Shown here one piece after another: positions 11,937 through 64,000 of a stretch of 64,000 nt of DNA (positions are counted from its first letter, which is position 1; every line of letters starts with the position of its first letter). The notes beneath the pieces were generated by a model. That model saw only the letters and a program-made list of their open reading frames with translations. It had not been told where the DNA came from and did no database searches. Origin of the DNA: Marsupella aquatica. Its lineage: Eukaryota > Plantae > Marchantiophyta. The translations under genes and the position numbers were made by a program. The stretch covers positions 15,492,699 to 15,556,698 of the forward strand of contig OZ316894.1 in the NCBI GenBank assembly GCA_973895155.1, in the 5' to 3' direction.

Positions 11937-11945
11937 TGAGATTTT

Positions 11946-19937: not shown

Positions 19938-19953
19938 GGGCACGGCGCCGTTT

Positions 19954-19963
19954 GAGGAGAGGG
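19954..19963 (+). promoter_or_regulatory. Polypurine tract of element B
   Basis: GAGGAGAGGG, 3 nt before the 3' LTR. Confidence 0.8.
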
Positions 19964-19966
19964 CTA

Positions 19967-22900: not shown

Positions 22901-23978
22901 ATAGTCTATACATAGAGAAACTCACTGGAAAATTTTCAGAATTTTCCGAGCTAGGAGTAGAAAGTTAAAAATAGTTGAATTCGGTAAGTCTTTAAGTCTA
23001 CCGCATTCACCGGATTACGCCTTTACGTTTTTATGCTTTTACAAGTTTACGTCTTTACGCTTTTATGCCTTTACGGGTTCTTACTTAGCCATTTCTCGGC
23101 TTTTCACTTACTGAATCGCTATTTTGACTTTTTGAGGAGTATGAAGAGGCATGTCTCTTCGACCCTATGACCTCTTACTTTGTAGATTTTTACTATAAGA
23201 AAAAGTTTAAGGAAAGTATAGCAATTTTTGCCTCTTCTTGGTGTTCAGCCAGTTGATCATGAATGTTAAGAGTTCAAGATCAAGTTTGACACCAAGAGAA
23301 GACTTCCCTCCTTCTTGTGGTTTATACTTTTGAATAAATCATAGGAAGTAAAATTCCTTTTGTGCAAATCTTTTGAGTTGTGATGACAGACTTCTTATTG
23401 GTGACTCATTACAATCTTCTGAGTTCTTAAAGTTAACTCATTGAGTTTATGTCTTAATGAATTTGATGGATTTTCTTTCATGATACTTAGTACCATCTAA
23501 ATGTTAAAGTAGTCACTCTTTTAGATTTTGTCTGAGTACCACTTAGAAAGAAAAGACAAGACGTGTTGACGGCACTTTAAAGGAGTACTCTAGTAAGCAT
23601 TTTAGACCTGAAAAGCAATATGGATTTGAATCCTTAAGTCTTTTCATTTTGACTTATGTCTAAGGAGCAACCTTGGTGAATTCCAGACTCCCTTAGCATA
23701 CTTTAAGATATTTTCCCTTGTGTTTTGTTAATCATTTCCTTTTCATTAATTTATGTTTACATGATGCTGAGATATCATTGAAAACTTCTCACCGCTGTGG
23801 AGCGATCTTCAAAATACCTTATTAAAGTAATCAAACTTGATTACTATGTGTAGAAAACATTTTTAGTTCTTTATTATTGTTTAAATCTATCAAACCAACC
23901 CCATCTTGTTCTTTACGGGAACGAATACCGAGTTTGGAGACCTTTAAGTATGTTTTTGGTTCTTCATAGCAAACTACA
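19967..23978 (+). repeat. 3' LTR of element B (4012 bp)
   Basis: Direct repeat of 7927-11936, followed by TSD GGGTC. Confidence 0.96.
20375..22798 (+). pseudogene. Second copy of the LTR-encoded accessory ORF
   Basis: Colinear with 8336-10765 and carries a different set of premature TAG stops. Confidence 0.8.
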
Positions 23979-32212: not shown

Positions 32213-32239
32213 GTAGCTGGTGTTGAAGGTTAGAACAGA

Positions 32240-34146
32240 TTGGTCATCACGGAGTCCTCTAGTGATATGGGGCTACCCAAGGGACAACGGGCTGGTTTCA
32301 CTTGAAGTGGAGTGCAATTTTGGCCGATAACATTGCTATTCGTCAATAGTGGGATTTCAGATAGTGATTCTATCGAGGACTTAATAGCCAGCTCTCCTCG
32401 TCATTGGATGACTGCACCATTGCTTTGGGACATGGATGAGATGTATGGGGCTACAAAGGGCCCAAGGAGGTACTCTAGTGCAGTGGGCACCATTGATTTG
32501 GATGACTTCATCCAAGAGTTTGATACGTGGTGAAATATGTAGATATTGCGTAACATCACATTGTTTACCCCTTTCATGACATGGAAGAGATTGTTTCAGC
32601 ATTTGGAGGGGTCACCCATGGATGACTACCATGGGTTTTGAAAGGCTCATTTGATTGATATTGAGGCATGAAGACAACATTGGTCACCAAACTATGTGTC
32701 CATCACTTATGGCACAAGTGTAGTTGCCCAACCCAATGCTACAATTGTTGCTTCATCTAGCAGCGCTAGCCAAAGTGGTACTCCAACAACATCCATTGCT
32801 ACTTCTACCGGTGTGATTGTGGCACGGACTTGAGGTGCTCCAACATTTAGCCATGTAGTAGAGTTCTTTGAGGTATTGAAGCACAATTATCAAGGTGTGA
32901 GAACTGATAAGTTGAAGGGTCTTCAAGAGTTTCAGGGCAAGACTGGAGAGAGTCTACGCGAGGCATACACCCATATGCAAAGATTGAAAATTGTCACAAA
33001 GGGAGTGACAGAAGCCTGAGCAATATTCTGGATAGGGAGCTACGGCGTAGAATGAAAGATGTCACCTACTTAGGGATTCAGATCCCACATTGGCAGTTGT
33101 TTTTGCACTTGTGAGCGCATTGAGCTCAACATGGTGAATGAGAAGGTGGTGACTTATGGATTTGCCAAGGAGGCACCAAAGGTTGCATCAACACCCACAT
33201 CGCAACTTGTTGCACGTACGAGCTAGAGGGAGAAGCCTACAACATGGGAATCTATTAGTTAGAGACTTGTGCCCTCCTATGTTGGACAACAGTTAGGATA
33301 CAGCTAGGATCTTGGACCCATGGTGGGGATCATGCACAGAGATATTGCCCGGATAATAGGGGGCAAGGAAGAGCATCTACGTCTGATCAACGACAATGTG
33401 ATCATTGTGGATTTTTTGGACATCGTGAAGATAGGTGTTTTGTACTCCATCCTAAACTATAGTGGGGAAGACCACATGCATATGATCAAGGAAGAGGAGG
33501 TAGAGGTGGTGGACGTGGCCAAGGCATGCCACATGCAGAAAGTCAAGGAGGTGATGTTGCTCTTGCTGTGACCACAGATCATAAGGATGCTAAGCTTGCT
33601 CAATTGAAGCAACAACTACCTGCTATGGCTAGTTCTTAGGTGAGACCTACTTATGGTAATGGGGCTTTTACATCCTATGGAGCTTCCACATCTTATGGAG
33701 GTGATGGAGATCTTGCCAACATGGGATTCAAGTGTGGCACAACACATATTGATGCAGCATTGACTCAAGGAGCAACAAAAAGCCCTTGAGCCCCGAGGAG
33801 CAATGGTAGAGTTGGATCCCCAAAGAGGGATGCTCATCATCAAACAAAGCTTCCCGAGTTGTTTACATTGTCAAAGGCAATTCACACTACCTCTATGAAC
33901 CCGGTTTGGACTAACCCAGATGGGAGTAAGTTGGCGGAATCAAGTGATGTTGCATCAAAGATAACAAGTACCTTGTTGGGGGCGGCCACTACTATAGTGC
34001 GCACGCCATTATTTTTAGCTATATATATGCTAACATTGGGAGTTAGTCCCGTTGATGTGTTTAAATTGGCGGCCATATTATGCGAGGACACTCCAGCTGT
34101 TGCTTCTTATGCACAAGCAACACCCAATTCTGAAGTAGTGGATTAT
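32240..34146 (+). pseudogene. gag: D1 gag (heavily decayed)
   Basis: LLWDMDEMYGATKGPRRY..VGTIDLDDFIQEFDTW is shared with D2 at 54547 onward. Confidence 0.8.
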
Positions 34147-38003: not shown

Positions 38004-38433
38004 TTGACTCCACCTATTGTTAGTGGTGAGACATGGCATGTAGCAACAGCGAGGTTGATAGATTTACCAACACATCATACATTTGAAAGAACTAGGTTTA
38101 AACCTAGTGTTGTGTCATTGGATAATTGGGGTGGTATCTTCCAATTAATTGGGCCTACTGGAGCAATATACCTACCAAAGAGAGTGTTATTGGATATTGG
38201 TGCTCATCCCTTGATGTTGGGAAAGTTGGCAATATAGGGATTATGATTGCGTTCAGATAATTTGGAGGATTGCCCCTTTCCCATTTAGACTTCATTGGGG
38301 GGACGTAACCCACACAACATATCACCAGGCGCCCGCTTGACTTGAGGATTCAGGAAGATCATGCAAAAGATAGCTCACACATACGATCGCAAGCTATTGT
38401 GACTAAGGCTAAATCATATGACGTGTTGGTGGG
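38004..38433 (+). pseudogene. pol: D1 aspartic protease
   Basis: RVLLDIGAHPLMLG and SYDVLVG, homologous to D2 LLDTGAQPLMLG. Confidence 0.85.
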
Positions 38434-40843: not shown

Positions 40844-41997
40844 TGTCCGGGTGACCGTGTTTTCTGGCAAGAGCATGTTGGCTCTTTTGAAGTTAACCTT
40901 GCATGCTCATAAGTTCTACACTAAAATCAAAATGATAATTCTAGTTACAAGGGTAGTGGGTATTAAGAAAGGTTAAGGTGAAACTAAAATACTGTTAAAC
41001 CCTACTTCACCATACTTGCGGACCAATACATCACAAAAATTAGTTTTCTTACGACATATGATCCTAATATCTCCAAGAGAAAATGAAACAGGAATATCAT
41101 CTGGACTCCTATTCAGATCCATGACTTCAATAAAGGACAAAGATGATGCACTCCCACTCCTTTCGGTACGACACCACTGGGTATATTATTGGCTCGTTAG
41201 AACCATAACAGCAGTTGCAAACTGAGCTCCAAAATGATAGATTAGATGTTGCCTCATAGATGGTTTGTCTAAAAGATGGACTCTAATCAAAAACGGATTA
41301 CGAAGGGGAAGATCAGGGATAACTCTCTCTCCTGGATTCATGATGGCTCTCCTATTCCTTTGCTATCCGGGCCAAAGGACGCCCCACCTCTATATTCCCA
41401 AAGAAACCTTATTCCCTAAGGTCCCATCTATAAGTCTACCACTCATTCATTTGCTATCCGGGCCAAAGGACGCCCCACTACTATGTTCAAGGCACAAAAG
41501 AGCTTCACAACCTTGAATGATAAACACTGTGGAATGAGGGGAGAGTGCCCCTCACTTTATTTATAGTGCACACCAAGAGGGCATGGATCAAGCCCAAGCA
41601 CTTGGATGAAGGCCAAGTGTCAAACATCTAATACCTAAGAGTGTGCTAGTACTGTTCATAGTTCGTGAAACTACTTTTAGAAGGTGGAACTACCATGCGT
41701 TGGTGGAACTACTATGCGTTGGTGGACCTACTATGCGTTGGTGGACCTACTGTGCGTTGGTAGAACTACTATGCGCTGGTGGACCTACTGTGCGTTGGTA
41801 GAACTACTATGCGTTGGTGAATATTATTGTAGTTAGTGGAACTACTCATATGCATTGGTGGAACTACTGTAGTATGTTAATATAACTAAAGAAGTTTAAT
41901 AAAGTTTAAATTTAATAATCTAACTACTAAATTACTTATATAATCTATAGCATATTAAAACAAACAATTTTTTATAACTTAAGAGAAAATCACGACA
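40844..41997 (-). repeat. 3' LTR of element C (1154 bp)
   Basis: Direct repeat of 48136-49180. Contains a 20-bp tandem array TGCGTTGGTGGAACTACTA at ~41685-41870. Confidence 0.95.
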
Positions 41998-42050
41998 CAT
42001 CACCCCTACCAAACCTGTGCATCCTCCGGTATGCACCACACCTAGAATCG

Positions 42051-45000
42051 CTACATGTCTTCTTCATCTAAAGCCTCATAGTCGTCGGGTTCAAACTCTT
42101 CCTCTGTCACAAATCGAGTTCGTCGTTTAAACAATTTCACTCGCTTCCCTACATAGGGATTGCGATGAATTGCTCCATCAAGTTCTCTTACCACATATGT
42201 TGCATTAGGACAAACCTCCTCCACCACAAATGGTCCTCTCCAACGACGTGCAAACTTCTTCAGAGTAGAATGTTGTTGTTCCAACCCTCCCTCATAGATC
42301 AAGACCCAATCTCCATTCTGGATGGGAATTGGTCTCAAACGATGGGTCTTGTCAAATCGTTCCTTATTCTTCTCACGAGCCTCCTTTAGCCTTAGTAACG
42401 CCTCCTCAATCTTCTCCTTGGTCTGGCTAAAGTGCTCAATCCTTCGCTCCAGCAACTTTTCTCGAGAGATTCTATCTTGCCATTCAATCATCCTCCAACT
42501 CTGAACGTTTTCCTCAATCGGCATCAAAGGCAAATGTCCAGAGACTAATTCGGCAGGCGTAATTCCTGTTGTGGTAGTGCATGTCATTCGATCTGCAAAA
42601 ATAGCAAATGGTAGAAGATTGGGCCAAAGCGATGGTTTTCCTCGACAAGATTTCACCAAGGCATTCACTATCGGTGGGTGCCCTCGCTCAATCTTTCCAT
42701 TTCCTTCTGGGTTGTAGGCAGTAGTGAGTTTGAGCTTGATGTTGAACCGGTTGAAAAATTCTGCAACCTCTTCAGAATTCAGCTCTCCTCTATCTGCTCT
42801 CATTTGCACAAAACAACCATGACGTGTTATAACGTCTTCAAGTATGAACCTGCATACTGCTTCTGTAGTGTTAGAGGTTAAAGCCCTTCCTTCAACATAA
42901 GAAGATAAATCTTCTCTTGCAAGGATAAGGTACTTTGCCCCCTAATTCCCCATGGCATGTGCACCACATCTACTGCCCACTGAAAATGTAAAGAAAGAGG
43001 ACTAATGGGATTAAGTCCATCTCTAAACCGAACTTTAGAGTAATACTGACAACTCTCACAAGATCCAACATAGGATTTTACATCCACATACATGCCTGAC
43101 CACCAGTACTACCTTTGAACCCGCTCATAGGTAGCTCTAACTCCTCGATGTCCTACTTCAACAGCATCATGAGAATTCCATAAGACTCTCTTCTTCTCTT
43201 CATCTGTATCAAGAACTCTACAAGGAACATGTCCTTTCTTCAAAGACCTTCTCCATAAAACATCATCCTTGAGCATGAACTTGTAAGCCTTCTTCTGTAA
43301 TTGTTGAAACTTCTCTTCTATCATTTCAACAGGCCTTTGAAGAGTACTAAGGTACCTTCCAATCAAGAGCAACTCTCCAGAATAGAGCTCCTCTCGAAAT
43401 GTTAAGACCTCAAACTCTTCATTCATCACTTGAACTGCCTCCACTTCATTCTGATCATAGTGGGCTCTTGAAAGCATATCTGCTACTAGATTATCTTTTC
43501 CAGCAATGTGTCGAAGCTCGGGGTTGATCATCCTAATAAAAGCTATCCAACGTAGCATAGCAATGTCTGGAGTATCACAGTTAGCAATCATCCCTAAAAG
43601 TGGTAAACAATCAGTCTCAAGAATGACTTGTGCTCCAATCAAGTAGACTTTTTCTTGACACAAGGCTATCCTTGCTCCCTACAACTCTTGCTTGATTTGA
43701 GGGTAATGCCTTTGCCTTGCTGAAAAGATCTTAGCTCCAAACCTTGCTGCAAATCTTCTCCCCTCCTCATCATCCTGCCCTACCGCCCATCCAGCAACAT
43801 CAGGACTTGAATCTACAGTGACAATGATGGGTCTTCCATCATAGCATAAGGGACGTAAAACAAGGGGGCTAAGTAAGGCCTCTTTTAACCTTTGCATAGC
43901 CTCCTTATGTGCCTCTGTCCAAACAAAGTGCACATTCTTCCTCAATAATCCGTACAAAGGATCAGCAATATGTGCAAAGTGAGGAATCCAAATCCTATAG
44001 AACAAGCAAGCGCCAAGGAACCTTCGCACCTCCGAAGTTGTCCTACAATCTTTCATCTGATTGATTGCATCTACTTTTCCTCCATTTAGCTTCCTCCCAT
44101 CAACTCCACAAATTTGTCCTACAATTAGGACTTCACGAAGCCCAAATGAAGATTTCTCACCAGAAAGAGTGAGCCCAACCTCAATCAACCTCTTCAAGAT
44201 TGCTTTCACATCTTGAATGTGCTCCCATACAAATTGTCGCAAGCCATCTTCACGTATAGTCTCATCTTTCTGTCTCCAAGCATCCCTTGATTGGCATATC
44301 ATCAAGGAATGGCTGTGTCTTCTCTGGAATGAAACAGTGTAATACCTTATTCATGGCATTCTGCATGTGAGCCACCGAGTTGGTTGCCCCTTGAGGCAAG
44401 GTACACATGCGAAGTAGCCCCAAAGGTGTCCTCATAGTGGTGATATCTCTACTACTCTAAGCCAACTGAAACTGATCATAGCCTAAATAGAGGTCATCAC
44501 ATGAATAGATGGCTCTACCAGCAAATTCTTTCGCAAACTCATCTACTATAGGTCCTATTCCAGTATTGCGAATAGTAACCTTGTTAGGTGGTTGCATGTC
44601 CTAAATAAATCTAAGTTTACCATTTTTCTTACGAATGGTAAACCAACGATTAGAATAAGGTGCATCTGTTCTTTCTAAAATCCTAGTGGAAAGCTTCTCC
44701 TTTAATAGATCAATAAGTTTAGGTAACAAAGCCTTGGGCATTGGAATGGGTTTCAAGTCCCAAGGAACATGCGGGACAGTGAAAATTACCATAGGAGTAA
44801 CAACACTAGGATTCACACATCCCATCTCTTCAGGACAAAAGGCAAAAGCCTTACCATGATCACCAATCATTTGCTGAAACTCTTCTCTCTCTTCTTTTGT
44901 CAGCAACCCATCATCACCAATCCTTAGTTGATTAAGGGTCTCCTTCGTGAATTTGTGGCCAATCTTAGTCCGATCTCTAAGACTGGTCTCTTTACCTGCC

Positions 45001-47989
45001 TTCTCCAAAATCTCCCTAGCATCCAAAGGTAAAGGAATTGCTGCTGGTCTCACTTTCTTCTCCACTGTTTTGTACTTGGTGTTGACCTCAACAAATTGAG
45101 ACAACTCGCCATACAGCTCATGATTGATTTCCATATGAGCTTTCCCCTCTGAAAGACCTTCAATTATTTCTTTCAAAGACACTTCTACTCCTTCTTCATC
45201 TAGAAGGCCTTCAATCTCTTCACTTTTCTCTAGCAATCCATGTATTTGCATAGTATCCTCAATCCTTGCAATTTTCTTTTTGAATTTTTTAGTAGCTTCA
45301 CACACTTTCACATAAGAAATTCGACAATGCAAGCTTTCACCTTCAAATGAGCTTGCCAACAAACTATTCACATTCCAAGTCACCAGCGGGTCATTGGCGA
45401 TGGCGCCCCGCCTTCCCGCATTGCTTAACGAGACGCCTTTCATAAATCCTCATTTCCCTCCTTGGGTTCAGGTCCTCTCAACTCCTTCCGATTCCTCCAA
45501 TGTCCAGGTTTCACTACAGGAAATTGGATAACCCGCAATTCATCCCGACTCCTTACCTTTGTCATATGAGTGCCATCTGGTAGGACCTTGTACTCCATTC
45601 GAGCTTGAGTAATGTAAGGCTGCCCTAGAATGAGATCATAGGGCAAGCTATCATGCACAAAGATGTTAGTTGGTTCTATCACATGGCCAACCTTCACTGA
45701 TACTCCAGGGCATCCTCCCCAAAGTATATTCTTTGAACGATTGATTGAGTTGACAGACCATTGAGTATCACAATCAATCATCCATTGCCCAAGATCATAG
45801 ATGCTTCTTGACATTAGATTCACCTCAGATCCTGTGTCAATCAATGCTCGAGCTTTGCCCTCCATTCCTCCAAGCTCTACCTCCACAACTGAGCAAGTTC
45901 TTGCCCAAAACGGCTCCAAGATGGACTCCTTGTCGTCTCCTGAATCAGGATTCTTCATAGCTGAAGCACACATGATCCACACACTTTGTGAGGCCTTGAG
46001 CACCTCTTCACAACTAATTTTTGCCATATCCTGGGTCACTGCAAATCCTGTTGTTGCTTTCGCCAATGGTTTCCACCTCTCCAATACCTCAACTCCTGAC
46101 ATATTTGGTTCAGGAACTTCCTTTGTTGAAGACCCTAGCATCTGTGGTCTAGGGATCTTCTCCGCATTCACTTGATACACTTCACACTCCACACTGGCTT
46201 GAGAAACAATTGAACCTTCTCCATCTTCATCAACATCAGAAAAAACCTCCATTCCCAAGGCATGAGGTCCTTCCTTGTAAAATTGTTTTCGTTTCACCTT
46301 TGCAAGTAATGCATCTTAAGCCTTGGAGTTCATGCAAGCAAAAAACTCCTCATTGGTGACTCCGCTCACCTCCGCTTTCCAAAACTTCTCAGCAACTTGA
46401 TCATACGCAATGTGCTGCTCAACATCTCTTCCAAGGACCCAACCAGGTCCTTTCTTTTCCACCTTCTCTTTTTTTACCACTTCCATCTCCTTTGAGGATG
46501 AAGGAGTCAAAGTAGGCTCCTTTGTTGTACTTCCTCTATCTTCAAATCGAACACTCCTCCTTGTTGGGACTCTTGATGATGGCTGCAAAATAGAGGGTCC
46601 AGGCTCAACCTTTTGTTTTCCTTTGGCACATTCTTCCAAAGGTTCCGACGACTTTCGTTTCTCCTCTACCATAGAATCCCATAGAGATCCCACTTCTGCA
46701 GTGAAAGAAGAGATCAACACTGGATTACTCCAACCTGACTTCCTCTTTACAAACTCTGGTAGTCTCTTCTTGTCTGTCTCTGTTGACGAAGAACTTCCAA
46801 AGAGGGTGTAAACATCTGCTTCATGCTCATCCTGATCTCCAAAAGTTACTGCAATGGCTGAAGTATGATGTTCAGTCATTCTTCTCTCCACCAACACCTT
46901 CATACCGCCTTTGTTTGTGTTTACTGGAATAAGCTCTCCTGAATCATGATAAGCAAGCTTTCTTATGCCATCATGATCAATGAACTTGACTATTCTCTCT
47001 CTCAGAGCAACAGAAAGCTCCCCACATTCATGCCTTGAGTGCTCCTTACTATCACACCAAATACAATTCCAACTCCTTGCTCCGCCAATGGAACTCCCGG
47101 CTCCTGGACCACCTCTTGAAGCTGGTCTTGATGCACCTCCTCCCATCTGCTCGAAGGCTTGGGTGGCAAGAATGGTAAGATTTTTCATGAGTTCAGATAA
47201 CTCATCCATTTTGTCCATGCTTTTCTCACCCCTACCAGTTGTTGACTCTATTTTTTCCATTCTCCTCATACAAGTCACAGGTGCAACCGCATGTACAGCA
47301 CCTTCATGACTCAGCTTCTTTCTTTTATGCTTTTGGCTGACCCTAAGCACAGCAATCTCAATCTCCTTCCAAGTTGGTGGACTGGCTCCACGACTTGGGT
47401 TCATCAATTCCAGAGCAAGCTCCAACTCGTCTTGAAGCTTCTCATCAGCAGCTCAGATAAGTAAAGTAGCCTTCTGTACCTTGATAACTTCAGAACCAAT
47501 CTCAGGAAGCTGATTAAACTTCTTCGTAAACTCCCTTATCAGTTCTTGAGGTCCCAACTTCTTGCTTCTATCGGCCACCCAATCAAGGAAAGATGCTTGA
47601 GTAACCCGATTTGGATCTTCAAGCTGAAATTCTTCTTTCATCTTCAACTCAAAGACCTTCCATGGTTTCTCCCCAGTAGCTCTATCTATCAAGGTAGTAA
47701 CAATTCCCTTGAGTTCAGGTTCCACTAAAGATACAAACTCCTTGACTGCAACTTCTGCATCAATCTTATGAATTGTAGCCTTCGTCCAGTACCCCTTGAG
47801 ATACTTGGTTGCATTTTGCCCATCAAATTCTCCTTGCTTGGTAAGAACCGAGTGTAGGTACTTCGTGGTCCTACCAAGCAACTCCTTCTTCTTGTTCTCC
47901 TCCATCTCCTTCTTCTTCATTCCATGTAAGTAAGCAGCAATCAAGGATGAAAACCTCTCCATGTCAGTTGGATTCATCTCAGTTCCCAT
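42051..47989 (-). pseudogene. gag-pol: Element C gag-pol
   Basis: FDGQNATKYL and CIWCDSKEHSRHEC (gag), LIDTGSEVNLM (PR), YSNRWF and PFLDDMPIKG (RT), VTVDSS and ETDC (RH), GHRG..CESC, ADRGEL and RWRGPF (INT). Confidence 0.95.
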
Positions 47990-48113
47990 GATTACAATTC
48001 TTCCCTCTTGACTTAATAATATAAACAAGTTAAGAACTCAAAGTTCTAGAATCATATTTCTCTTCATCCATTAGAACTCAAACATGCACAAGCTAACTTC
48101 CAAATCCAGCGGT

Positions 48114-48131
48114 TCCCCAATATGATCGCCA
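48114..48131 (-). promoter_or_regulatory. Primer-binding site of C (TGGCGATCATATTGGGGA; possibly tRNA-Arg type)
   Basis: TGG-initiated 18-mer 4 nt from the 5' LTR. The tRNA identity is a tentative inference. Confidence 0.7.
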
Positions 48132-48135
48132 GTTA

Positions 48136-49180
48136 TGTCCGGGTGACCGTATTTTCTGGCAAGAGCTTGTTGACTCTTTTGAAGTTAACCTTGCATGCTC
48201 ATAAGTTCTACACTAAAATCAAAATGATAATTCTAGTAACAAGGGTAGTGGGTATTAAGAAAGGTTAAGGTGAAACTAAAATACTGTTAAACCCTACTTC
48301 ACCATACTTGCGGACCAACACATCACGAAAATTAGTTTTCTTACGACATATGATCCTAATATCTCCAAGAGAAAATGAAACAGGAATATCATCCGAACTC
48401 CTATTCAGATCCATGACTTCAATAAAGGACAAAGATGATGCACTCCCACTCCTCTCGGTACGACACCACTGGGTATATTATTGGCTCGTTAGAAACCATA
48501 ACAGCAGTTGCAAACTGAGCTCTAAAATGATAGGTTAGATGTTACCTCATAGATAATTTGTCTAAAAGATGGACTCTAATCAAAAACGGATTACGAAGGG
48601 GAAGATTAGGGATAACTTTCTCTCCTGGATTCATGATGGCTCTCCTATTCCTTTGCTATCCGGGCCAAAGGACGCCCCACTACTATGTTCAAGGCACAAA
48701 AGAGCTTCACAACCTTGAATGATAAACACTGCGGAATGAGGGGAGAGTGTCCCTCACCACTTTATTTATAGTGCACACCAAGAGGGCATGGATCAAGCCC
48801 AAGCACTTGGATGAAGGCCAAGTGTCAAACATCTAATACCTAAGAGTGTGCTAGTACTGTTCATAGTTGGTGAAACTACTTTTAGAAGGTGGAACTACCA
48901 TGCGTTGGTGGAACTACTATGCGTTGGTGGACCTACAATGCGTTGGTGGACCTACTGTGCGTTGGTAGAACTACTATGCGCTGGTGGACCTACTGTGCGT
49001 TGGTAGAACTACTATGCGTTGGTGAATATTATTGTAGTTGGTGGAACTACTATAGTCCGTTAATATAGCTAAAGAAGTTTAATAAAGTTTAAATTTAATA
49101 ATCTAACTACTAAATTACTTATATAATCTATAGCATATTAAAACAAACAATTTTTTATAACTCAAGAGAAAATCACGACA
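48136..49180 (-). repeat. 5' LTR of element C (1045 bp)
   Basis: Matches 40844-41997 apart from an ~90-bp indel and array length. Confidence 0.95.
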
Positions 49181-51462: not shown

Positions 51463-51637
51463 AGCCAACTAGTTATCACTTGTGTTTGCATGAAAGATAT
51501 GGATTGCAGGTAGGTGATCAATGAGGCTCACTTGCACCCGACCTCCTAATCTTAGCACCTAAAAAGGTGTATATCAACCTTGTAGAACTCATGGCTAGCT
51601 AGAGTTAGGGGACCTTACTCCCAGCTAGGGGGGCGAT

Positions 51638-52125
51638 TGTGGGTTTTGAACATGTGTGGACATGGGTTCCATTTGGACTCCATTTTCTTATGTTTGTGAT
51701 GTTGGATTGTGACTATGCTTGGATGTGTGTGACAAGCGATGTATGTTGTGTAGCAATGTATATGCGCACGACAACTATCACACCATTTAGAGTGGTACTA
51801 TAGTATATCGTACTTTCTAGGCATAGAGGTTTGTTTGTGTGCTATATGAGCATTTAGTGTTTAATTGGTGTTTGTGTGAGGGATCATAGTTATTCCCTTG
51901 TGTTGGCCAAGGGTCTTAACTTTCAATGTTGAGCTTGTAAGCCTGTGAGCATTTGAGCACAAGCTCTGGTGGCTATGGTGTGGCTGACCAAGTTGTGTTC
52001 TACATGTAACATGGATTCCTTGAAGCACAAGGTGCATTGGGCTTGATATACGTGTGTGATTGCATTGGGCGGGATTGTTGTTGGATTGGCACCGATTGTT
52101 GTTTGATTTTTATTGTCGAGATTAT
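51638..52125 (+). repeat. D1 3' LTR, left part, preceded by PPT AGGGGGGCGA
   Basis: Begins TGTGGGTTTTG right after the PPT. Homologous to 52126-~52945 apart from an ~350-bp indel. Confidence 0.82.
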
Positions 52126-53149
52126 TGTGGGTTTTGGACATGAGTGGACATGGGTTCTATTTGGAATCCATTCTCTTATGTTTGTGATGTTGTATTGTGA
52201 CTATGCTTTAATAGATGTGTGTGAGAAGCGTGATGTATGTTGTGTAGCAATGTGTATGCGCACGACATGCTGTTTTGGCAGGATTTGGTAAGGGAACAAA
52301 CTAGGCCCCACAAACCCCAAGAATCCATGGTGCTCCTAAACCCAGCTGAGCTCAGGAGGATTTAGTCCTCCTTGAGAGCTTTCCAACGCACCCAATAAGT
52401 TCTCCAACGAACCTCCCGTTGGGATGTTATCGTCATTTCCGTTTGGCATTTTCCCTTAGTGTCATGATCGCCGTGACTCACAACTTCGGCTCTCCCTTAG
52501 CACCCAGGGAGACACCACTCCCCTCATATATGCTTCTAAAGACCTGCCACCCTTGGACCTACTTTGGTCCCCAAATTTTGGCCCCCCACTTGGACCTCAA
52601 CCCGCATGTCTGGGCATGTGTCACACCATTCTAGGTAGTGTTAGAGTGTATTGTACTATCTAGATCCGTATGTTTGGTATGTGTGTTATATGAGCCGATA
52701 AGGTTCCATTAGGTTTGTGTGAGAGGGTACTTCTCACTTGTGAGGCATTGAAAGGTCATCTTTCAATGTTGTGCCTTGGAGAGAAAGGAGCTTGAGTGGC
52801 TATGGTGGCTGTGAGCTCCGCTTGTGTAACGTGGATTCCTTGAGTAGTGCAAGGTGCGTTGGCTTGACATATGTGTGTGATCGGATTGGTGCAAGATTGA
52901 TGGGGTATTGTTGACCGGGATCGTTGTGCCGATTGTATGGAGATTACATTGAAAGATCAGTAGCTTCAAACTCTGTTGTGCAGACAGAAGCTCAGTCCGA
53001 GTTTGTCATTGATGATTTGCGGTAGATCAAATCGATTGGAGCTGTTGTTTTGATCCGTGGTACCTCAAATCATGGAGTGGATCGCCGGTATTGAGAAGTT
53101 TGTGTCTGATCTGTGCTGCCATTTGACGGATAGTATGCTGCTGCCCACA
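52126..53149 (+). repeat. D2 5' LTR (right end tentative)
   Basis: Starts TGTGGG like the D1 3' LTR. CCCACA at 53144-53149 gives a terminal inverted repeat, but no canonical PBS follows. Confidence 0.6.
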
Positions 53150-53776: not shown

Positions 53777-54546
53777 AAAGCGTTGCGGGCTCACTCTTTG
53801 GCTCATCTCGGCGTTTAGAGGCTTCGAGGCAACTCGTGGGTTACTCGGGACGTGAGGGCGGAGCAGGAGCGAGCGGGCCAGCAAGGCAGCTTGCTGGGAC
53901 GTGAGGAGTAGTTGCAAGCTGCTGATTTTGGAGCGGCCATTTTGGTGCATAACTACAAGTGAGAGGTCACCCATCCCAAAGCTATTCCTTCCCCATGCAC
54001 TTAACTATGTGGTTCTTAAGTGCTCTTGTGTACACACACTCTTTTCCACTTTGATGTTAATGGAATGAACACTTAGGCATTTTATACACATTCTAGTTTG
54101 TTTAGATTGCCATTTTGGGCAAATCATATAAGCTCCCTCAAGGTTTTTGATGCTTCTGAATCCATCTAGATGCATGGATTGAACCAATTGTGCATGGATC
54201 CTTAGCTACGACATTGAACATTGAGAGGCCTATTATGAAGGCCCCACATTGAACATTATAAAAATTGTTTGATTGATGTATAATAACTATTGATGTGGAG
54301 AGTTATTGTGGATCTCTTCTTGTTGATTGGATCCTCTCCACATATGCTTCCTGTTTATGCGCCATGTTAGTTTGGCGTGGGCGCTTGATTCTATAGGAGT
54401 GATCCGGGTTTGCAACCGGACATTCTAATTGTGCTACGTATTTCTCTCCTGGTGATGTTGGAGTGATGCCCAACACACCATGGTGAGTGCTTGTGTTGCT
54501 GACAGGGACAGATTGCCCTTAGGGTTAGCATATAGATTAGGTTAGG

Positions 54547-56669
54547 TTGGACACCACAGATTCTTCTGGTGCTGCTGGGTTACCCAATGGACGACGGACC
54601 GGTTTCACTCGGAGTGGGGCACAGTTTTGGCCAGTGGCATTGGTAGCAGTCAGCAGTGCAGCTTCAGACAGTGATTCCGACGAGGACCCAGTGACCAGTT
54701 CTCCTCATCATCAGGTGGTTGCACCTTTGTTGTGGGATATGGACGAGATGTACGGGGCTACAAAGGGCCCAAGACGATACTTTGGTGCAGTTGGCACAAT
54801 TGATCTAGATGACTTCATCCAGGAGTTTGATACGTGGTGCGATATGCAGACATGCGTAACGCCATGTTGTTTACCCCTTTCATGGCATGGAAGGGATTAT
54901 TTTAGCATTTGGAGGGGCCACCCATGGATGACTACCATGAGTTTTGGAAGTCTCATTTGGTTGAGATTGAGGCATGGAGGCAACATTGGTCGCCTAATTA
55001 CGTGTCCATCACCTATGGCACTAGTGCGGCTGCCCAACCCATTGCCACAGCTGCTGCTTCTTCTAGCAGCACTAGCCAGAGTGGCACACCATCCACGAGC
55101 AGCACTCCAGCAACATCCACCGCTACTCCTGCCGGTGTGATTGTGACAGGAACTGGAGTTGCGCCAACATTTAACCTTGTGGTGGAATTCTTTGAGGTAC
55201 TGAAGCAGAACTATCAGGGTGTGAGAACTGATAAGTTGAAGGGTCTCTAGGAGTTCCAACGCAAGACTGGAGAGAGTCTATGTGAGGTATACACTCGTAT
55301 GCGTAGATTGATCACTGTCACCAAGGGAGTGACGGAGGCTCAGGCAATCCAGTTTTGGTATGCAATTTTGGACAGAGAATTGCGACGCAGAGTGAGAGAT
55401 GTCACTCTGCTTAGGGATGCAAATCCCACATTAGCAGTTGTTTTTACCCTTTCTGAACGCATTGAGCTCAATATGGTGAATGAGAAGGTGGTGACTTCCA
55501 GATTTGCTAAGGAAGCACCAAAGGCTGCATCTACATCCACACCACAACCTACTGCACAAAAGAGCGAGAGGGAGAAGCCGACTGCATGAGAGTCTACCAG
55601 CCAGAGACCTGTGTCCTCTTATGCTGGACAACAGTCAGGATGTTGGACCTGTGGTGGGGATCATGCACAGAGATATTGCCCAGATCATAGAGGATCAGGG
55701 GGAGCATCAGCGCCTGATCAGCGACAGTGTGATCACTGTGGAGCTCCTGGACACACCAAGGATAGGTGTTTCTCACTCCACCCTGAGTTACGGAGGGGGG
55801 ATCTCGTACACATGATCAGGAAAGAGGAGGAGGAGGTAGAGGTGGTGGACATGGTCGTGGCATGCCACATGCAGGGAGACAGGGAGGTGACGTTGCCCCT
55901 GTTGTAACCATAGATCCAAAGGATGCTAAGATTGCTCAATTGGAGCAACAGCTAGCTGCCATGGCTAGTTCCCAGGTGAGACCTACTTCTGATGATGGGG
56001 CATCTATATCCTATGGACCTTCCACATCCCATGGTCCTTCCACATCTTATGGAGCTGATGGAGATCTTGCCACCATGGGATTCATGTGTGGCACTGCACA
56101 TATTGATGCATCAACAACTTTGACACGTGGGGCAGCCAAAGCTCTTGAGCCCTGAGGAGCAGTAGTGGAGTTAGATCCATAGAGGGGGGATGCACATCGG
56201 CAGATAAAGCTTCCTCAATCTTTTACATTGTCAGAGACAGTTCAGACTACCTCTATGAACCCGGTTCGGACAAACCCTAACGTGGGTAAGTTGGCAGAAT
56301 CAGGTAGTGATGCAACAGGGATGACAGATACCCTGCTGGGGGCGACTACTGCCATAGTACGCACCCCATTATTTTTAGCGACAAACATGCTGAACTTGGG
56401 AGTTGGTCCTGCATAAGTGTTCAGATTGGGAGCTACACTCTATGAGGACACTCCAATGGTTGCCTCCCATGCAGAAGCAGCTTGCAGTGTTGAAGCAGTG
56501 AAGACCATGCCACCTACTGCTACTAGTGAGACATGGCATGCAACAGCAACGAGGTTGGTGGATTTACCAGCACGCCCTCCATTTGAGAGGACTAGGTTTA
56601 AACCTAGTGTTATATCATTGGATAATCAGAGTGGTATCTTCCGATTAGTTGGGCCTTATGGAGCAGTAT
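54547..56669 (+). pseudogene. gag: D2 gag and gag-protease linker
   Basis: LDDFIQEFDTW, Q-RKTGESL, knuckles CWTCGGDHAQRYC and CDHCGAPGHTKDRC, RGG-rich tract. Frameshifts near 54850 and 55800. Confidence 0.82.
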
Positions 56670-56674
56670 ACCAG

Positions 56675-59600
56675 TGTCAGACCCTCGCTTATGAGCTAAT
56701 AAGCCTTATTGTACTAAAAGCTTGCACTTGATAGCTCTTTATCACCAGGAACTACGGGAGGGACGCTCCATAAGAAGGAACTACCTCTATTTCCATTAAG
56801 CCTTTGCTTCTCCTTGAGACTGTGCAGATGTATTTGGTTTCCGTCACCATAAATGGGTATTCTTTGCTTTCCACTGCTGGAAATGTCCCCCTACCCGGCA
56901 AGACAACTAATCTAGGTCTCCCTTTCCCAAAGAGAAGACTTCTGGACTCACAACCATCATATGAGCAACATGCTAGACCACAAGGGCCTCAAGATTTCAG
57001 ATGAGTGCACATCAACAATTTCTTTCCCAGAAACACGCTGAAATTTCATAAGAATTTCAAAGGAAGTACATGGGTAGGTTGTCACTACCTACTTGCTATA
57101 CTTTAGCTTCTTCAACTCCTACTACTTAACACTATGGTCCTTTCAAGCCTCAAGGCATATACTTGAGTTCTAGTACCCCTAGAACATCTACCTTAGTTCC
57201 CCTAAGGTCTCTTAGTGCTACTCCTTGATTCTCCATACTTGGACCCACACAAAGTAACTCACACCAACTTAAGTACTCCTTGCTTGGCTCCAACTCATCA
57301 CAAAGTCCAAAACCACCCCAAAGGCCAGCAAGTGACTCATCACTAAAAAAGACCAGCCCACCTTTCAAGGGGGTCAAAGATCCTTACTTATCCTCCTAAC
57401 TATCTCACTAACTCACTTGTTTGTCTTACCTAACTAATGAGCTAGTTGGTGGCCTTTTGAAAGCCTAAATCAACTCCTTGATTTTAGCCCTTCATTCAGG
57501 TCCACCTCACCTCCTGACTTGGCTGTCCTATCCCTCCAAATCAGGGACTAAGTCAGTCTCCAAAGTATAGTCATCCCTATCTACCAAATAGCTCTAAAAA
57601 TAGTAGAGGGATCAACTTCCAATGGCCCTCCAAGTTCCTCCAAAGTCTCCATGTAACTCAGGTCCTTAGGTACCCTCCATGTTGGCTTTAAGGACTCCAC
57701 TCCTTACCCTCCTTATTCCTGGACTCCAGAACCAGCCTAGGTCCCCTTGACATGAAAGAGCCCTTCTCCAGGCCTCACCCATCCGATTAGGGCCTTGCGA
57801 ATGACCCAAGCATGGTACCTCCTTACCGTACTGGTTAGTGGCTTGGTAATCTGGTTGTCCTCTCTGAAATGCTTGAGGTACACCTTGGTGAAAGCCCTCA
57901 GATTTGAACTTCTGCCCCTCTTGTGCACCTTTGAGCAAGCTAGGTATTGGAACCCCGTGAGACTACAAACGTAAAGGCCCAGTACTCCTGTGAAATATAA
58001 GCCCTGGTCTTGACAGTAAGTGCATGGGTGAATGGAGAGAAAGAACTCATGGAAATAGGAGAATGAATGCTTCCCATCTATGGTAGAGTCAACTGCCTGA
58101 TTCAGTTTGGAGCAAGGAGAGAACTAAGCTAGGACTTAGAGAACTGAACTTGTTTGAAGGGATCGTGGCTTATTTGAAGGAAGTCTGGCTGGTGCTTCTG
58201 TTCATACCAGCCCTCCATTCTCACAAAAAATATCTCCCTTCCATGTGTTCTTCTCTCGATTGTCGGTTGACCTTGGTAGCATTCAATTTGTGAGTCCAAA
58301 GAGCAGCCATTCTAATTTCAGAAATATCTCTATGGACTTGATACTAATCCTGCATTCAATTCTTGAGTCCAAAGAGCAGCCATTCTAATTTCAGAAATAT
58401 CTCTATGGACTTGATCCTGCATTCAATTCCTGAAGTTAAGGGCCACAGCTCAGATTTCTTGTCAATCACCCTAGCTGAGGAAATGGTCTTCTAGCTGTCC
58501 ACTGTTGCCACCTCGAAGTTCCCCTATAGAAGGTGCAAGTTGATTTTGCCTGAAGAGCCCCCTTGTTAGCAGTTGATGACTTCTCCTTTAGATGTAAAAT
58601 ATTCTCTCTGATTCAGAAATTTCAATCTTCTCTGTTAATTTCCCTTCCAGCCTTTGCTTTCCCTTCGATCTCCTCCTTTAATTCATGCTCCAGAATTTCT
58701 TCTTCTAGTTCAGGTCTTCTGATTCTCCTTGAGCCCAGCATTCCAGCCCACTTCTTCTTACTTGATTTGGTGGAGTATTGGCTCTCCATTCAACTGCAGC
58801 GTCGAGCTCCATTCTCCCTTCAATTTCACTTTGATTTTTGCTCTATTGAATTCTGGGCTCGACACCTGGCCTTAGCTAGCTCTTTTACATTGTAACCCTG
58901 CCCTTTACAGATGTAAATGAGTCCACCACGTTTCTCTACGTAGCTGAATTACCCCTTTGTATGCACAAAGAACATTCCTCCCTTTAAGTCTCCCTTTAAG
59001 TGCTACTTATGGCATTTAACATTAGCCATCTTCGCCTATAGCTCAAAACTCACTCATTAGAAAAAAACTATTATGAACATACTCCTGGCTTTCCTAGCCC
59101 TAGGGCTTCCTAAAACAATTCTTAGAATTGATATATAACTAAACTTGGCTTTTCTATTATTGTTCAAAGTCTGCAATCCGTCATAATTCATAGCTACTTT
59201 TACAGAATTTGGACCACTCCCAAAAAGTATCTATAAGTCCAAAACTAGGTTTAGTAATTCTAAGGGATAGTGTTAGGTATAGTAACACCATGGCTAGCCT
59301 TCAAAATACATTTTTTGCTCTATGGCTATTTTCCCTAGGTCCTGCAAGTTGGCTATTTTAAGTTTTGTTCCACTGTAAATAGCTTCTAATTGAACGGTCG
59401 AAATGACTTGCACTTTTACAAGGGTTCTCCAGGGCCTGCCTAGAACCTTCAGAAAAAATCCCAGCCTAAATTACAAACTCTAAGGATCTGATTACCTATC
59501 TAATCCACTAATCCACTGTTAAGTTAACCGTGGTTTAAACTAATTAAACTTTCTTACTCTGCTTTACTGAAGAGAGTTTACTTCAGTTTCACTTCTACTT

Positions 59601-59693
59601 CCCACTCATTTACAGGCATAATATGCTTACTTAGAACAAAAAAGAAAAAATCTAACCTAAAACTAATTTAACCCACTAATTGAGCGGCTCACA
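56675..59693. mobile_element. Solo LTR F (3019 bp)
   Basis: TGTCAG...CTCACA with TSD ACCAG (56670-56674 and 59694-59698). Removing it restores the D2 frame. Internal duplication at ~58292-58430. Confidence 0.9.
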
Positions 59694-59698
59694 ACCAG

Positions 59699-60050
59699 CC
59701 AGAGAGGGTGTTACTGGATACTGGTGCTCAGCCCTTGATGTTGGGAAAGTCTGCCATACGTGGATTGGGATTGCGTCCAAAGGATTTGGAGGATTATCCC
59801 TTTCCCATTCAGACTTCATTGGGGGGACCTACACCTACACAACATATCACCAGGAGACCACTTGATTTGAGGATTCAGGAAGGTCATCTGACAGATAGCT
59901 CACAGATATAGGCACGAGCTATTTTGACTAAGGGAGAGTCATATGATGTGTTGGTGGGATGTACAATGCTCTACCCCATGGGATTTATTCTTGATTTTTG
60001 GGAGGAATCAGTGTCATATAGACCTGATTGGCAGTCAGGAGATGCTCGAT
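59699..60050 (+). pseudogene. pol: D2 aspartic protease
   Basis: RVLLDTGAQPLMLG...SYDVLVGCTMLYPMGFILDF. Confidence 0.9.
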
Positions 60051-60421
60051 TGAGAAAATTGTCAGTGAGATTTAGTGGACCTATGGGAGGCCCTAAATCC
60101 ACACCATTGTCTTTGGCAATATTCAGTGGTCTAATTGCTGGACCTGATAATCTGATTGAGGGTAATGCGCATGCAGCAGATGTTCCACCATTGGAGGAGT
60201 CTCATGAGGAGCACATCATGCGAGGATTACCTGTTGGCAGTGTTGTGCCACCAGTGTGGGGCATTGCACAGGCCTTGCCATAGGCAGCAGCACGATTGGT
60301 ACATGATGCATGGCGTCATGCTTTTACACCACAGTTAGGAGCAGAGCAGTCTCTTGCAGATGGACCTGTGACTCTTTCACCATTGGATACCACTCCTATT
60401 GCTTGGCAGTATCCATCGGAG

Positions 60422-61380
60422 GGTATTTATTTGTTGGATCTTTTTGGTGGGATTAGCACTGGATTGGCTGTTGTTCTTCAGGCAGGAATTTTTGTGCGTC
60501 GTTATTTGTATGTGGAGGCAGATGAGACAGCACGGAGGGTCTCATTGCGACATGTGGCTATGTTGGTGGATAGATATCCACAGTTGCTGCCAGTGGATGT
60601 TGTTCGTGGTTATCAGCATGCACTACCTACTGATATTTCATTGCTGGGGGCGGATCATCTGCATCGTGTTGGCTCCATTGATTTGGTGATTGCTAGTTGG
60701 CCATGTTAGGGCCAATCTAGAGCTGGCGTTGGGCATGGACTTCATGATCCACGCTCTGCACTGTTCTGGGAGATGTTACGGGTGCTGCGTCATCTCCAGC
60801 TACATCAGACACAGTCTCCAGCATACATTTTGGAGAATGTGCCATTGTTAGGTGATGATCGTAGTCAGATTGTTGCCAGTGTTCACCAGGTGAGGTCTTG
60901 GATTGGACCTGCTGTGTTATTGGATGTTGCACGTGTGGGTTCTCGTGCACATCGTCCACGCTTATGGTAGACTAATTTGATCCCATGTGAGGTGCTGAAG
61001 CGCGCATTTGACAGCATTCCACGCTCACCCGCCTTAGTGGTGGATGATATTTTGGATCCAGGGCGTCGTGCATAGGGTGTGACCCAACCTGATAGACCTC
61101 CATTGGCAATGGTCAATGCAGTTGGGCGCCCACGTTGTGCATTACCCACTCTTGTAAGCCACTCTGCTTCATATGCATTCAGAGCAGGTGGCCCTGGACT
61201 TGTGTGGGACACAGCTCTCTAGCAGTTAGTGGAACCTACTGCTGATGAGAGAGAGCGTGCTATGGGATTTTTGACTGGCACCACTGCAGCTGCCTCTATG
61301 TCAGAGGGTTTGCGGCGCCAGGTTCTTGGTCAAGCAATGGATCTGAATTGTTTGACTTGGATTATCAGCTTGGGAGTAGC
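60422..61380 (+). pseudogene. DNMT3-like C5-cytosine DNA methyltransferase domain inside D2 pol
   Basis: Motif I LLDLFGGISTG; II YLYVEAD; III TDI; IV DLVIASWPC*G (PC at 60701-60706); V GLHDPRSALFWE; VI YILENV; VIII GSRAHRPRLW*TNL; IX-X ERERAMGF...RRQVLGQAMD. Order is unpermuted, with in-frame TAG stops. Confidence 0.93.
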
Positions 61381-61606
61381 TAAACAGTTGCGGATGCGCT
61401 CTGCTAGAATTACTGATTGTCCCTTGATGAGCTTGCGGTCCACTGAGACAATACTAACCACAGCTGGGGGCAAGTAGATAGTCCATGGACCTATGGCAGG
61501 ATTGGCCAAGGCTGGACAGATTGTTGAGCAGGAAGGGACTACTCAATCTATTGCTAAATAGCAATCATCGGCTATCTCTTCTACCCTACAAAGAGATATT
61601 AGGGAT

Positions 61607-63064
61607 TTGGTGGAGAGTTGGGAACCACAGCTTGGCCCTAAGTTGACAGGGGAGGAGAGACGTCGCATGCATCGATTCCTGAAGAGTTACTCGAATTGTT
61701 TTGCATTTAGCATGAAGGATTTGGGGACATTAAAGGGTCCTGGTATTCAGATTGAATTAGCTAGTGATGCGCCAATCTTTTGTAGGCCATACCATTACAG
61801 TGACATGGAGAGAGCTCTGATTCAAAGCAGAACTCAAGATTTGTTGGAGGCTGGATTGGTGGAGATTTCATATGGGGAGTATGCATCTGCCACAATGATG
61901 CCAGCCAAGAAGGATGTGCATGGCAATTACACAGATAGGCGCATGTGTGGTGATTATAGACCCATTAATCGCCAGACAAAATCTGATAGATATGCCATGC
62001 CCACACCTGAGGAGATCTTTGATGTTGTGCGGCATGCAAATGTTTTGAGTTCATTGGATCTGAGGGCAGGGTACCATCAGCTTCCAATTAGGCATGCTGA
62101 CAGGTCCAAGACAACAATCTGGGGGATTGATTCTTATGGCAAAGATTGTTTGTATCAGTGGTTATTCTTACCATTTGGGTTGAAGAATGCACCAGCTGAG
62201 TTCCAGAGAGTCATGGATCGAATCCTTGCAGGTTTGGATTTTGTCAGATGTTATATTGGTGATATTTTGGTCTATTCTTCTATAGTGGAAGAACATCAAC
62301 AACACTTGTAGATTGTGTTGGAGAGATTGAGAGCACATGGGTTGAAGCTCCATCCTAGCAAGTGTAAGTTCTTCCAAGACCAGATTGAGTATTTGGGCCA
62401 CACTATATACCCAAGGGGATTGGGTGTACAACAGACTGAAGTGGAGGCCATTACATAGATTCCTTGTCCTACTGATGTGAGTAGAGTTTGTGCATTCTTG
62501 GGATTGGCGAGCTACTATAGGAGGTATGTTAAAGGATTTAGCCAGCTTGCTAAACCTTTGACCATACTCACTAAGTTGGATCAGGAATGGATTTGGGGTG
62601 ATGACCAAGAGCATGCCTTTCAGGAGTTGAAGCAAAGGTTGGCATCATCCCCTATTTTGAGAAGACCCATTTCAGGCAGACCATTTCAGCTACACATTGA
62701 TTGGAGTGGAGTAGGACTTGGAGCAGTGCTGACTCAAAAGGATGATGAGGGGAATGAGTTTGTTGTGGCTTATGCCAGTAGATCAAACAATTCAGCAAAG
62801 GCTAAGTATAGCTCTTATGAGGGAGAGTGTTTGGCAGCAGTGTGGGTTGTTGCACACTTTTGTTGCTACTTGTTTGGTAACCCCTTCACCTTGATCACTG
62901 ATCATCAGCCTCTTAAGTGGTTAATGGAGTCTGACAAGCTTACAGGGAAGCTTGCACGATGGGCATTGTTGTTACAGGAGTATGATTTCCAGGTGATGCA
63001 TAGGCCTGGAAAAGTGAACTTGGATGCAGATGGATTAAGCCGCAATCCATGTACCAGTCAGTAG
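61607..63064 (+). pseudogene. pol: D2 reverse transcriptase and RNase H
   Basis: RMCGDYRPIN, LDLRAGYHQ, LPFGLKNAP, YIGD (mutated YIDD), [17 protein letters not shown] and DADGLSR. Confidence 0.95.
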
Positions 63065-63106
63065 GATGAGACTAGAGCCAGATGGCATGATGAGTCAGAT
63101 AAGGAG

Positions 63107-63666
63107 ATGGTGTCAGGATGGCATGCATCTACCTTTCTTTGTTGGGTGCCAGCATACAGTGGATCTGTGGACTCTACCTCATTGGATGGAGTGGATGATG
63201 AGTCTTCAGATGTGGATGTTGGTGAAGTAACTTCTGGACAACAAGATATTCACAATGATGTGAGAGTGTTGGAATATCTGCGTAGTGGTTCTATTGTTGG
63301 CAGTGTTGATGCCAAAGAACGTGACAGGGTTCTACAAAGAGCCAAGAGGTTTCGATGGGAGGGAAACCATCTTTTGAGAGTACTGCATGATGGTAGGGTG
63401 TTGGTGGTACCAAAACCATCACAACGAGTACATTTGGTGCGACATGCACACAAGGAGTTGGGGCACTTTGGTGTGAAGCGCACTTATAGTTTACTACAGA
63501 CACAATATTGGTGGCGTGGTATGCACACTCATGTCCAGCAGTTGATAGCTAAGTGTGTGGTATGTGATAGAGTGAGAGCATCATTTAATGCTCCCACTCC
63601 CCAGTTGCACCCGTTGTTGATCATGGGTTTGGGATATCGTTGGAGTTTGGATTTTGCTGGTCCATT
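63107..63666 (+). pseudogene. pol: D2 integrase N-terminus (HHCC zinc finger and first catalytic Asp)
   Basis: AHKELGHFG...YWWRGM...CVVC...WSLDFAGP, then the CACTA junction. Confidence 0.92.
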
Positions 63667-64000
63667 CACTAGTAGAAATACCCCCTATTTTTGACCAAAC
63701 CACTATTGACTAATGTGACAAGGTTATGGAAGTTTAGGGAGTTATCACTACATATGTCTTAAGTATCACTTCTACAAACTATCCACTCATTTGTTGCAAC
63801 TCCTTCATAAGGAAAATGGCAGGTCCACTATCCAAGCCAAATGTCTTAGTGCTAAGTACTTATGTGAGTGAGTGCTAATCACCAATTGCCAAACATTCAA
63901 GCTTTTAATGTGAGAAAGTCTCAAATAGTAGAGGTACCCCATTAGGTGAGCCCCTTACATGTCACTGGCTCCTTTACATGAGCCCCTTGCATGTCATTGG
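63667..64000. mobile_element. Left end of a CACTA (En/Spm) DNA transposon
   Basis: Integrase homology stops exactly at CACTAGTAGAAA. Short subterminal repeats GAGCCCCTTRCATGTCA follow near 63948-63997. The other end is outside the window. Confidence 0.75.

Follow-up and report, generated by a model that had tools for sequence, protein, structure and literature searches.

The closest described relative of the element reported here is KnitGypsy-Dnmt3 of Klebsormidium nitens, a Gypsy-DNMT3 retrotransposon with DIRS-like repeats in which, according to the available part of its description, the methyltransferase lies in the Pol open reading frame (ORF; PMC5890265). According to a review, 'land plants, such as tracheophytes' have no methyltransferase-bearing retrotransposons (PMC6338049), papers from 2025 and 2026 still name just 'streptophytes' for Gypsy-DNMT3, and the accessible text of the study on EpiLTRs regards the streptophyte Gypsy-DNMT3 as a separate acquisition (bioRxiv 10.64898/2026.05.21.726589). 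In the current study, we have analyzed a stretch of 64,000 nucleotides from Marsupella aquatica (hereafter, the window) and found two decayed copies of a Ty3/gypsy-type retrotransposon carrying a DNMT3-like C5 cytosine methyltransferase. This extends methyltransferase-bearing retrotransposons into land plants (liverworts and Sphagnum), Gypsy-DNMT3 being in print only from Klebsormidium. A sequence-only reading of the same DNA had named an algal precedent and knew of no land-plant family. The precedent is KnitGypsy-Dnmt3, as far as the available text of PMC5890265 describes it, and our literature search, which did not extend to most subscription papers and Repbase, found no land-plant description of the family, of its readthrough site or of integration from circles.

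Overall, we favor with moderate confidence a reading in which the window holds a decayed Ty3/gypsy-type copy, ORF1 likely encoded Gag, protease (PR) and DNMT3, a leaky stop led on to reverse transcriptase (RT), RNase H (RH), integrase (INT) and a PHD finger, and the methyltransferase was packed at capsid abundance and likely methylated the cDNA.

A decayed Ty3/gypsy-type copy with a methyltransferase

Positions 59699-63667 (+) translate without frameshifts as a single frame of 1323 codons, in which all 11 stops are TAG, and the eight ORF fragments from which the sequence-only reading had deduced a shared frame all start in it. Within 59699-63666, the frame encodes a protease, the DNMT3-like C5-methyltransferase, an RT, an RNase H and a truncated integrase; the Pfam values listed below for protease, RT, RNase H and integrase were obtained on the translated frame with stops read as X. 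The earlier reading had taken this interval as the extent of the element, without the gag region, the PHD finger, the split repeats and the second copy. The real start of copy 1 lies ~7 kb upstream of 59699 (5' repeat at 52619, gag from ~54541), and a second decayed copy, with 77-85% nucleotide identity to copy 1, is found in pieces at 32237-52267. The features of both copies are as follows (LTR, long terminal repeat; TSD, target-site duplication):

52619..52948 (+), copy 1 5' repeat A (TGTCAC...CA), promoter-bearing part of the LTR; 68% to copy 2 A at 51778-52088
52949..52959 (+), copy 1 primer-binding site, complementary to 52756-52766 within A (10/11); predicted self-priming
54541..56674 (+), copy 1 gag-like region, containing two CCHC knuckles, plus the beginning of the protease region; 38-62% in tblastn to intact ORF1 proteins
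56675..59693 (no strand given), later 3019-bp TG...CA insertion with 5-bp TSD ACCAG, foreign to the element; copy 2 is continuous across the same point
59699..60073 (+), aspartic protease with LDTGA at 59714; the Asp_protease_2 match (E 0.017) is below cutoff, and relatives carry the protease upstream of DNMT
60416..61384 (+), DNMT3-like C5 cytosine methyltransferase domain, unpermuted, with four decay stops; from Pfam, profile and fold
61559..61567 (+), conserved ORF1 stop in type I readthrough context (TAG CAA TCA); from alignment of relatives
61646..62413 (+), reverse transcriptase; RVT_1 E 8e-29; the catalytic motif at 62252 reads YIGD in copy 1
62594..62983 (+), RNase H; RT_RNaseH E 1.4e-33
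63236..63666 (+), N-terminal part of integrase (HHCC); Integrase_H2C2 E 1.6e-15; ends at the presumed CACTA-like terminus at 63667
32237..34140 (+), copy 2 gag region; 77% nucleotide identity to 54544-56500
38010..38433 (+), copy 2 protease region, interrupted by an insertion; 83% nucleotide identity
49237..51222 (+), copy 2 C-terminal half of DNMT, junction stop (TAG AAA TCA), RT and part of RNase H; 85% nucleotide identity
51322..51456 (+), copy 2 PHD finger at the integrase C-terminus; PF00628 E 2.3e-10
51626..52267 (+), copy 2 3' end: polypurine tract, B (51639-51773), 2-nt spacer, A, B (52127-52267)

The element belongs to a Ty3/gypsy-type retrotransposon family. It has the order Gag-PR-RT-RH-INT, with Gag recognized by position and CCHC knuckles only, and it also has a DDE integrase, TG...CA ends, a polypurine tract and TSDs within the 4-6 bp of such elements; the TSDs were read on relatives, the window copies having lost opposite ends. 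Instead of two identical terminal LTRs, the ends are formed by the repeats A and B. Copy 1 is dead: ten of its 11 stops, all except the one at 61559, are ascribed to decay, its RT motif is altered, and it carries two insertions. The 3019-bp insertion at 56675-59693 interrupts the protease region, a terminus at 63667-64000, which we take to resemble a CACTA end, truncates the integrase, and the gag-like region (54541..56674) has decayed through stops and frame changes. The contigs of four sequencing runs over 60280-61800 point to a many-copy family, most of the depth being without two of the decay stops. Sixteen sequencing runs were listed as containing the sequence, with no RNA run among those listed, which has no bearing on expression.

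Copy 1 starts only 351 bp past the end of copy 2 (gap 52268-52618) and in the same orientation; this close same-strand spacing may reflect chance or target preference.

The methyltransferase domain and its relatives

The C5-methyltransferase motifs follow each other in unpermuted order (LFGG at 60440, WPC at 60677-60706, ENV at 60833, HRPR at 60950, and further motifs at 61247 and 61325), as the sequence-only reading had proposed. The profile and structure checks that it suggested were both positive. The X-read protein matched the Pfam family DNA_methylase (PF00145; E 2.5e-8, 34.2 bits with a cutoff of 22), and an AlphaFold2 model of the X-read domain (pLDDT 90, pTM 0.90) returned DNMT3A/B/C for all the listed Foldseek matches (best E 2.8e-18). 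A 20-sequence profile searched against the PDB placed DNMT3A/B/C on top (DNMT3A E 8e-18), followed by DRM2-type enzymes (3e-7) and then bacterial enzymes at ~1e-4 (HhaI 2e-4). By profile and fold, the domain is DNMT3-like, with DRM, DNMT2 and bacterial enzymes more distant than DNMT3, in agreement with the earlier assignment to DNMT3 and not to DRM.

The domain is under purifying selection. The domain is complete and in a single frame in 40 loci, of which 39 retain ENV and 38 retain WPC. The ratio of nonsynonymous to synonymous substitution rates (dN/dS) is 0.09-0.23 across lineages, with most pairs near synonymous saturation, and 0.12 at dS 0.26 in one unsaturated intact pair, L048/L050 (L numbers denote metagenome loci and P numbers homologous proteins); two sibling copies gave 0.885. 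In 80 metagenome loci, retrieved with DNMT as bait, protease and RT flank the domain wherever a locus spans the two. A DNMT tree (46 rows) and an RT/RH tree (30 rows, quick method), both of element sequences only and without host DNMT3, DRM, DNMT1 or K. nitens sequences, show matching nesting, and the window falls in a 100/100 clade that contains every named bryophyte row. The DNMT is intrinsic to the family and co-descends with RT, as the earlier reading had supposed. This co-descent, together with the purifying selection, argues against a later insertion of the domain, and we rejected that alternative: none of the loci shows a flanked insert, in a set where DNMT-less sister elements could not appear because DNMT was the bait.

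From ~8000 scored candidates each, the homolog searches returned 101 near-length proteins and 54 longer ones. Eukaryote names among these 155 listed homologs are Marchantia, Calypogeia, Riccia, Sphagnum and Closterium, and that of K. nitens is not among them. P0104 and P0105 correspond to the Marchantia polymorpha gene models Mp4g09160 and Mp8g17980, which are stop-free ORF1 copies ending at the analogous point after DNMT; the presence of ORF1 gene models in this genetic model makes the role of transposon DNMTs testable. In bryophyte annotations, DNMT counts may also be too high because of such element copies. None of 44 candidate viral contigs was related to the element, and an Atlas cluster search returned nothing but generic RT clusters. 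L081 and L082 are intact eukaryotic-type elements within prokaryote genome bins, a placement that is most likely contamination.

The conserved stop between methyltransferase and reverse transcriptase

Intact relatives consist of ORF1 (Gag-PR-DNMT), a stop, and ORF2 (RT-RH-INT-PHD). In L048, ORF1 (1369 codons) and ORF2 (1047 codons, with RT, RH, rve and PHD) are parted by the stop alone, and in both L048 and L081 the two long ORFs share one frame and ORF2 lacks a starting Met. The closest protein, P0103, terminates exactly at the equivalent of the stop at 61559, and many Gag-PR-DNMT proteins of 1150-1450 aa, without RT, end 58-129 residues past the domain. The junction was tallied in the 59 of the 80 loci that span both DNMT and the RT start, which are mostly siblings of one Sphagnum-like family, represent about six lineages and in several cases are one insertion assembled twice. 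A stop occurs at the homologous place in 58/59 loci, and 54/59 have an RT-frame TAG or TAA with CAR as the next codon, 26-33 codons ahead of RT. Three of the five misses have the motif displaced from the anchor by an indel, one reads TAG TAG CCA and one TAC. L068, the sole locus without a stop, carries a Tyr codon there; Tyr is the residue inserted at stops of the tobacco mosaic virus type, according to the accessible reports. CAR follows only 15/444 decay stops, and the motif persists over DNMT-RT linkers of varying length (261, 318, 360, 432, 438 and 441 nt).

The context in copy 1, TAG-CAA-TCA, is the tobamovirus leaky-stop motif; the junction reads TAG CAA TCA in L081 and TAG CAG TTA in L048. 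The type I readthrough motif, which both sequences match, is given as UAG-CAR-YYA in the available text of PMC3542737. CAR is present in 54/54 junctions, and the full CARYYA in the window, L076, L081 and 5/54 tallied loci. Because the conserved stop lies between DNMT and RT, the DNMT ends a Gag-PR-DNMT ORF, and the position of the stop after the domain implies an enzyme made at the level of Gag, not of Pol.

The sequence-only reading had instead proposed an ancestral single Pol polyprotein, PR-DNMT-RT-RH-INT, with every stop a product of decay. The one frame of 59699-63666 agrees with this, DNMT is joined to RT in five spliced gene models, and a reviewer response by de Mendoza, in the portion available, puts the Gypsy DNMT in the RT ORF. 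However, the homologous stop of the 58/59 loci, present also in otherwise intact elements, parts DNMT from RT, and the four joined gene models that were inspected use four different junctions, as automatic intron calls would. The single-Pol reading is already refuted for the window lineage, with one sense-codon locus seen (L068), and we give it next to no probability.

Pol could also be expressed by splicing out the stop, by reinitiation or from a separate transcript. The Sphagnum-like family has an ATG two codons past the stop, some gene models are spliced, and in Ogre elements stops located between PR and RT are removed by splicing. Yet no ATG follows the stop in the window, L011, L048, L049, L050 or L081, the linker stays in frame and, in intact copies, holds one stop only, CAR is conserved whereas its flanks are not, and the splice junctions of the gene models disagree, all of which renders these routes improbable. 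Readthrough is the expression mode that we propose: ORF1 would yield Gag-PR-DNMT in bulk, and occasional readthrough at UAG-CAR-YY(A) would very probably add RT-RH-INT-PHD.

Split repeats, proposed mechanism and comparison with known systems

Copies of the family read either A-coding-PPT-B-A-B or A-coding-PPT-B (PPT, polypurine tract). Ten loci were checked for TSDs, two of them untestable; an exact 4-bp TSD was found in 6/8, a 3/4 match in one, and one depends on where A starts. Pfam detected the DDE integrase domain rve in L048 and L049. The B|A joint forms the palindrome GACA-nn-TGTCA with a 2-nt spacer in the window and in L015, L022, L033, L048, L049, L069, L079 and L081, eight loci from distant lineages; the same pattern also gave three matches elsewhere. 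The second joint, A|B, is variable, and primer-site or PPT-side letters are kept in L046 and L033. In four elements of differing sequence, the site following the 5' A shows complementarity to a part of A itself (10/11, 13/13, 12/12 and 12/12), and the element is predicted to self-prime its reverse transcription.

The split repeats, the TSD, the B|A palindrome and the self-priming site suggest integration from circular cDNA. Self-primed reverse transcription would give BA-coding-BA, the ends would join to a circle, and the integrase would open the GACA-nn-TGTC palindrome to leave A-coding-B-A-B, a sequence of steps we regard as slightly more likely than not; the circular cDNA would integrate with a 4-bp TSD. 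Split repeats could also arise without a circle, through an extra strand jump in reverse transcription or a rearrangement after insertion. Circles were not observed directly, the circular contig L081 (9285 bp, 127-bp end overlap, one B|A junction) may be a collapsed repeat, and in the literature search integrase cleavage of circle junctions came up for retroviruses only. Against a circle-free origin, the whole A...B unit is TSD-flanked, and the palindrome at the internal junction, with its 2-nt spacer, is fixed, whereas the A|B joint varies and keeps primer remnants; such an origin is possible, although we would not expect it. The end structure may represent a natural case of integration from circular cDNA.

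With regard to the enzyme, the protease would release DNMT inside the particle, and DNMT would then, with somewhat better than even chances, methylate the double-stranded cDNA, the DNA at hand, before integration. The PHD finger may or may not, with equal chances, read histone H3 to choose targets. Alternatively, the protein could be expressed as proposed, but with host chromatin at the insertion site, or host genes, as the target of DNMT, or with DNMT having no catalytic role and binding DNA or RNA in the particle. An abundance at Gag level would exceed the need of one cDNA per particle, the PHD finger points to chromatin, and the K. nitens domain was without activity in yeast in the available text of its description. 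On the other hand, the catalytic PC and ENV motifs are conserved under purifying selection, and the related SymbioDIRS-Dnmt3 is described, in the part at hand, as methylating CG de novo; we consider the host-directed or binding role rather unlikely. Methylation of the cDNA within the particle remains the role we favor. The model builds on which domains are present and in what order, on the two-ORF layout, the stop context, the purifying selection, the matching trees, the split repeats, the 4-bp TSD and the primer-site complementarity, and from these we infer readthrough, cDNA methylation and circle integration. A wider reading is tentative and on the doubtful side: an old green-plant lineage, still present in land plants, that places DNMT3 on every Gag before a leaky stop, methylates its cDNA in the particle, opens circles with a DDE integrase and is guided by the PHD finger, so that copies would enter the genome already methylated.

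Several points weigh against the model. Two fragments of the gag region of the window gave no match to Pfam Gag, the RxR motif was matched in just 20/40 loci, most of them decayed, and the homologous stop of copy 2 reads TAG AAA TCA. Of the 54 junctions, 47 read CAA CCC ATG, an incomplete match to CARYYA that also contains an ATG at which translation could reinitiate. L027, with one B, and L079, with B-A-B, share a 3' flank, and single-B forms may therefore be secondary (recombinants or collapsed assemblies). CpG observed/expected ratios of 0.55-0.78 in intact relatives indicate mild depletion; we rejected CpG/CHG depletion as evidence of self-methylation because host methylation confounds it. 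KnitGypsy-Dnmt3, the sole related enzyme to have been assayed, did not methylate in yeast, a result that its authors called inconclusive in the available text (PMC5890265).

The window contains other elements as well. An unrelated Gypsy element at 7920-23978 has 4-kb LTRs that are 97.7% alike, gag, knuckles, RT, RH and INT, and its named homologs are from liverworts and one Physcomitrium. A minus-strand LTR element (40844-49180, LTRs 94-96% alike) is nested in copy 2. Three copies of a ~2-kb repeat lie at 1245-3097, 25040-27532 and 38434-40843, of which at least two contain 20-bp tandem units, and one copy interrupts the copy 2 protease. A 431-codon open frame at 4788-6080 (-) had no convincing Pfam match.

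Tobamovirus type I readthrough likewise uses UAG-CAR-YYA before the polymerase, works with UAA too and inserts Tyr, as described in the available text of PMC3542737 and PMC2754532. In the window family, by contrast, the predicted readthrough motif follows Gag-PR-DNMT in a retrotransposon. Tca2 is said to have a stop between gag and pol, to which the stop of the window family can be likened. The Tcn1/Tf1-type self-priming chromoviruses also have no tRNA primer site, are predicted to self-prime and are found in mosses, according to the accessible part of a survey in which 'PHD', 'methyltransferase' and 'readthrough' do not occur (PMC6317226). The window family shares their predicted self-priming site, but after the integrase a PHD finger replaces the chromodomain, and split repeats and DNMT are added.

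The EpiLTRs of Cymbomonas and Euglena likewise combine a cytosine methyltransferase with a chromatin reader in an LTR element, but their own DNMT is related to DNMT4 and accompanied by a DAM domain and a chromodomain, in the text available (bioRxiv 10.64898/2026.05.21.726589). SymbioDIRS-Dnmt3 resembles the window family in having a DNMT3 in a retroelement, A-coding-B-A-B repeats and a proposed cDNA methylation, as far as the accessible text describes it (PMC5890265). It has a tyrosine recombinase, whereas the window family has a DDE integrase (rve) and 4-bp TSDs and is thus distinct from DIRS elements, which have a tyrosine recombinase and no TSD.

KnitGypsy-Dnmt3 shares Gypsy domains, an intronless unpermuted DNMT3, the DIRS-like repeat layout and purifying selection on DNMT with the window family, and the available text of its description does not mention a PHD finger, readthrough, self-priming or circle integration. 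Its host is Klebsormidium, while the window family is in a bryophyte, and its DNMT is placed, in that text, in the Pol ORF with RT and RNase H, while in the window family DNMT ends ORF1 before the conserved stop. The same-ORF arrangement of DNMT with RT and RNase H is found instead in P0137-P0152, which together with L082 have a second architecture, RT-RH-DNMT-INT-PHD in one ORF, and lie apart from the window family in both trees. This architecture may be of the KnitGypsy-Dnmt3 type, in which case the domain would have moved or been captured twice.

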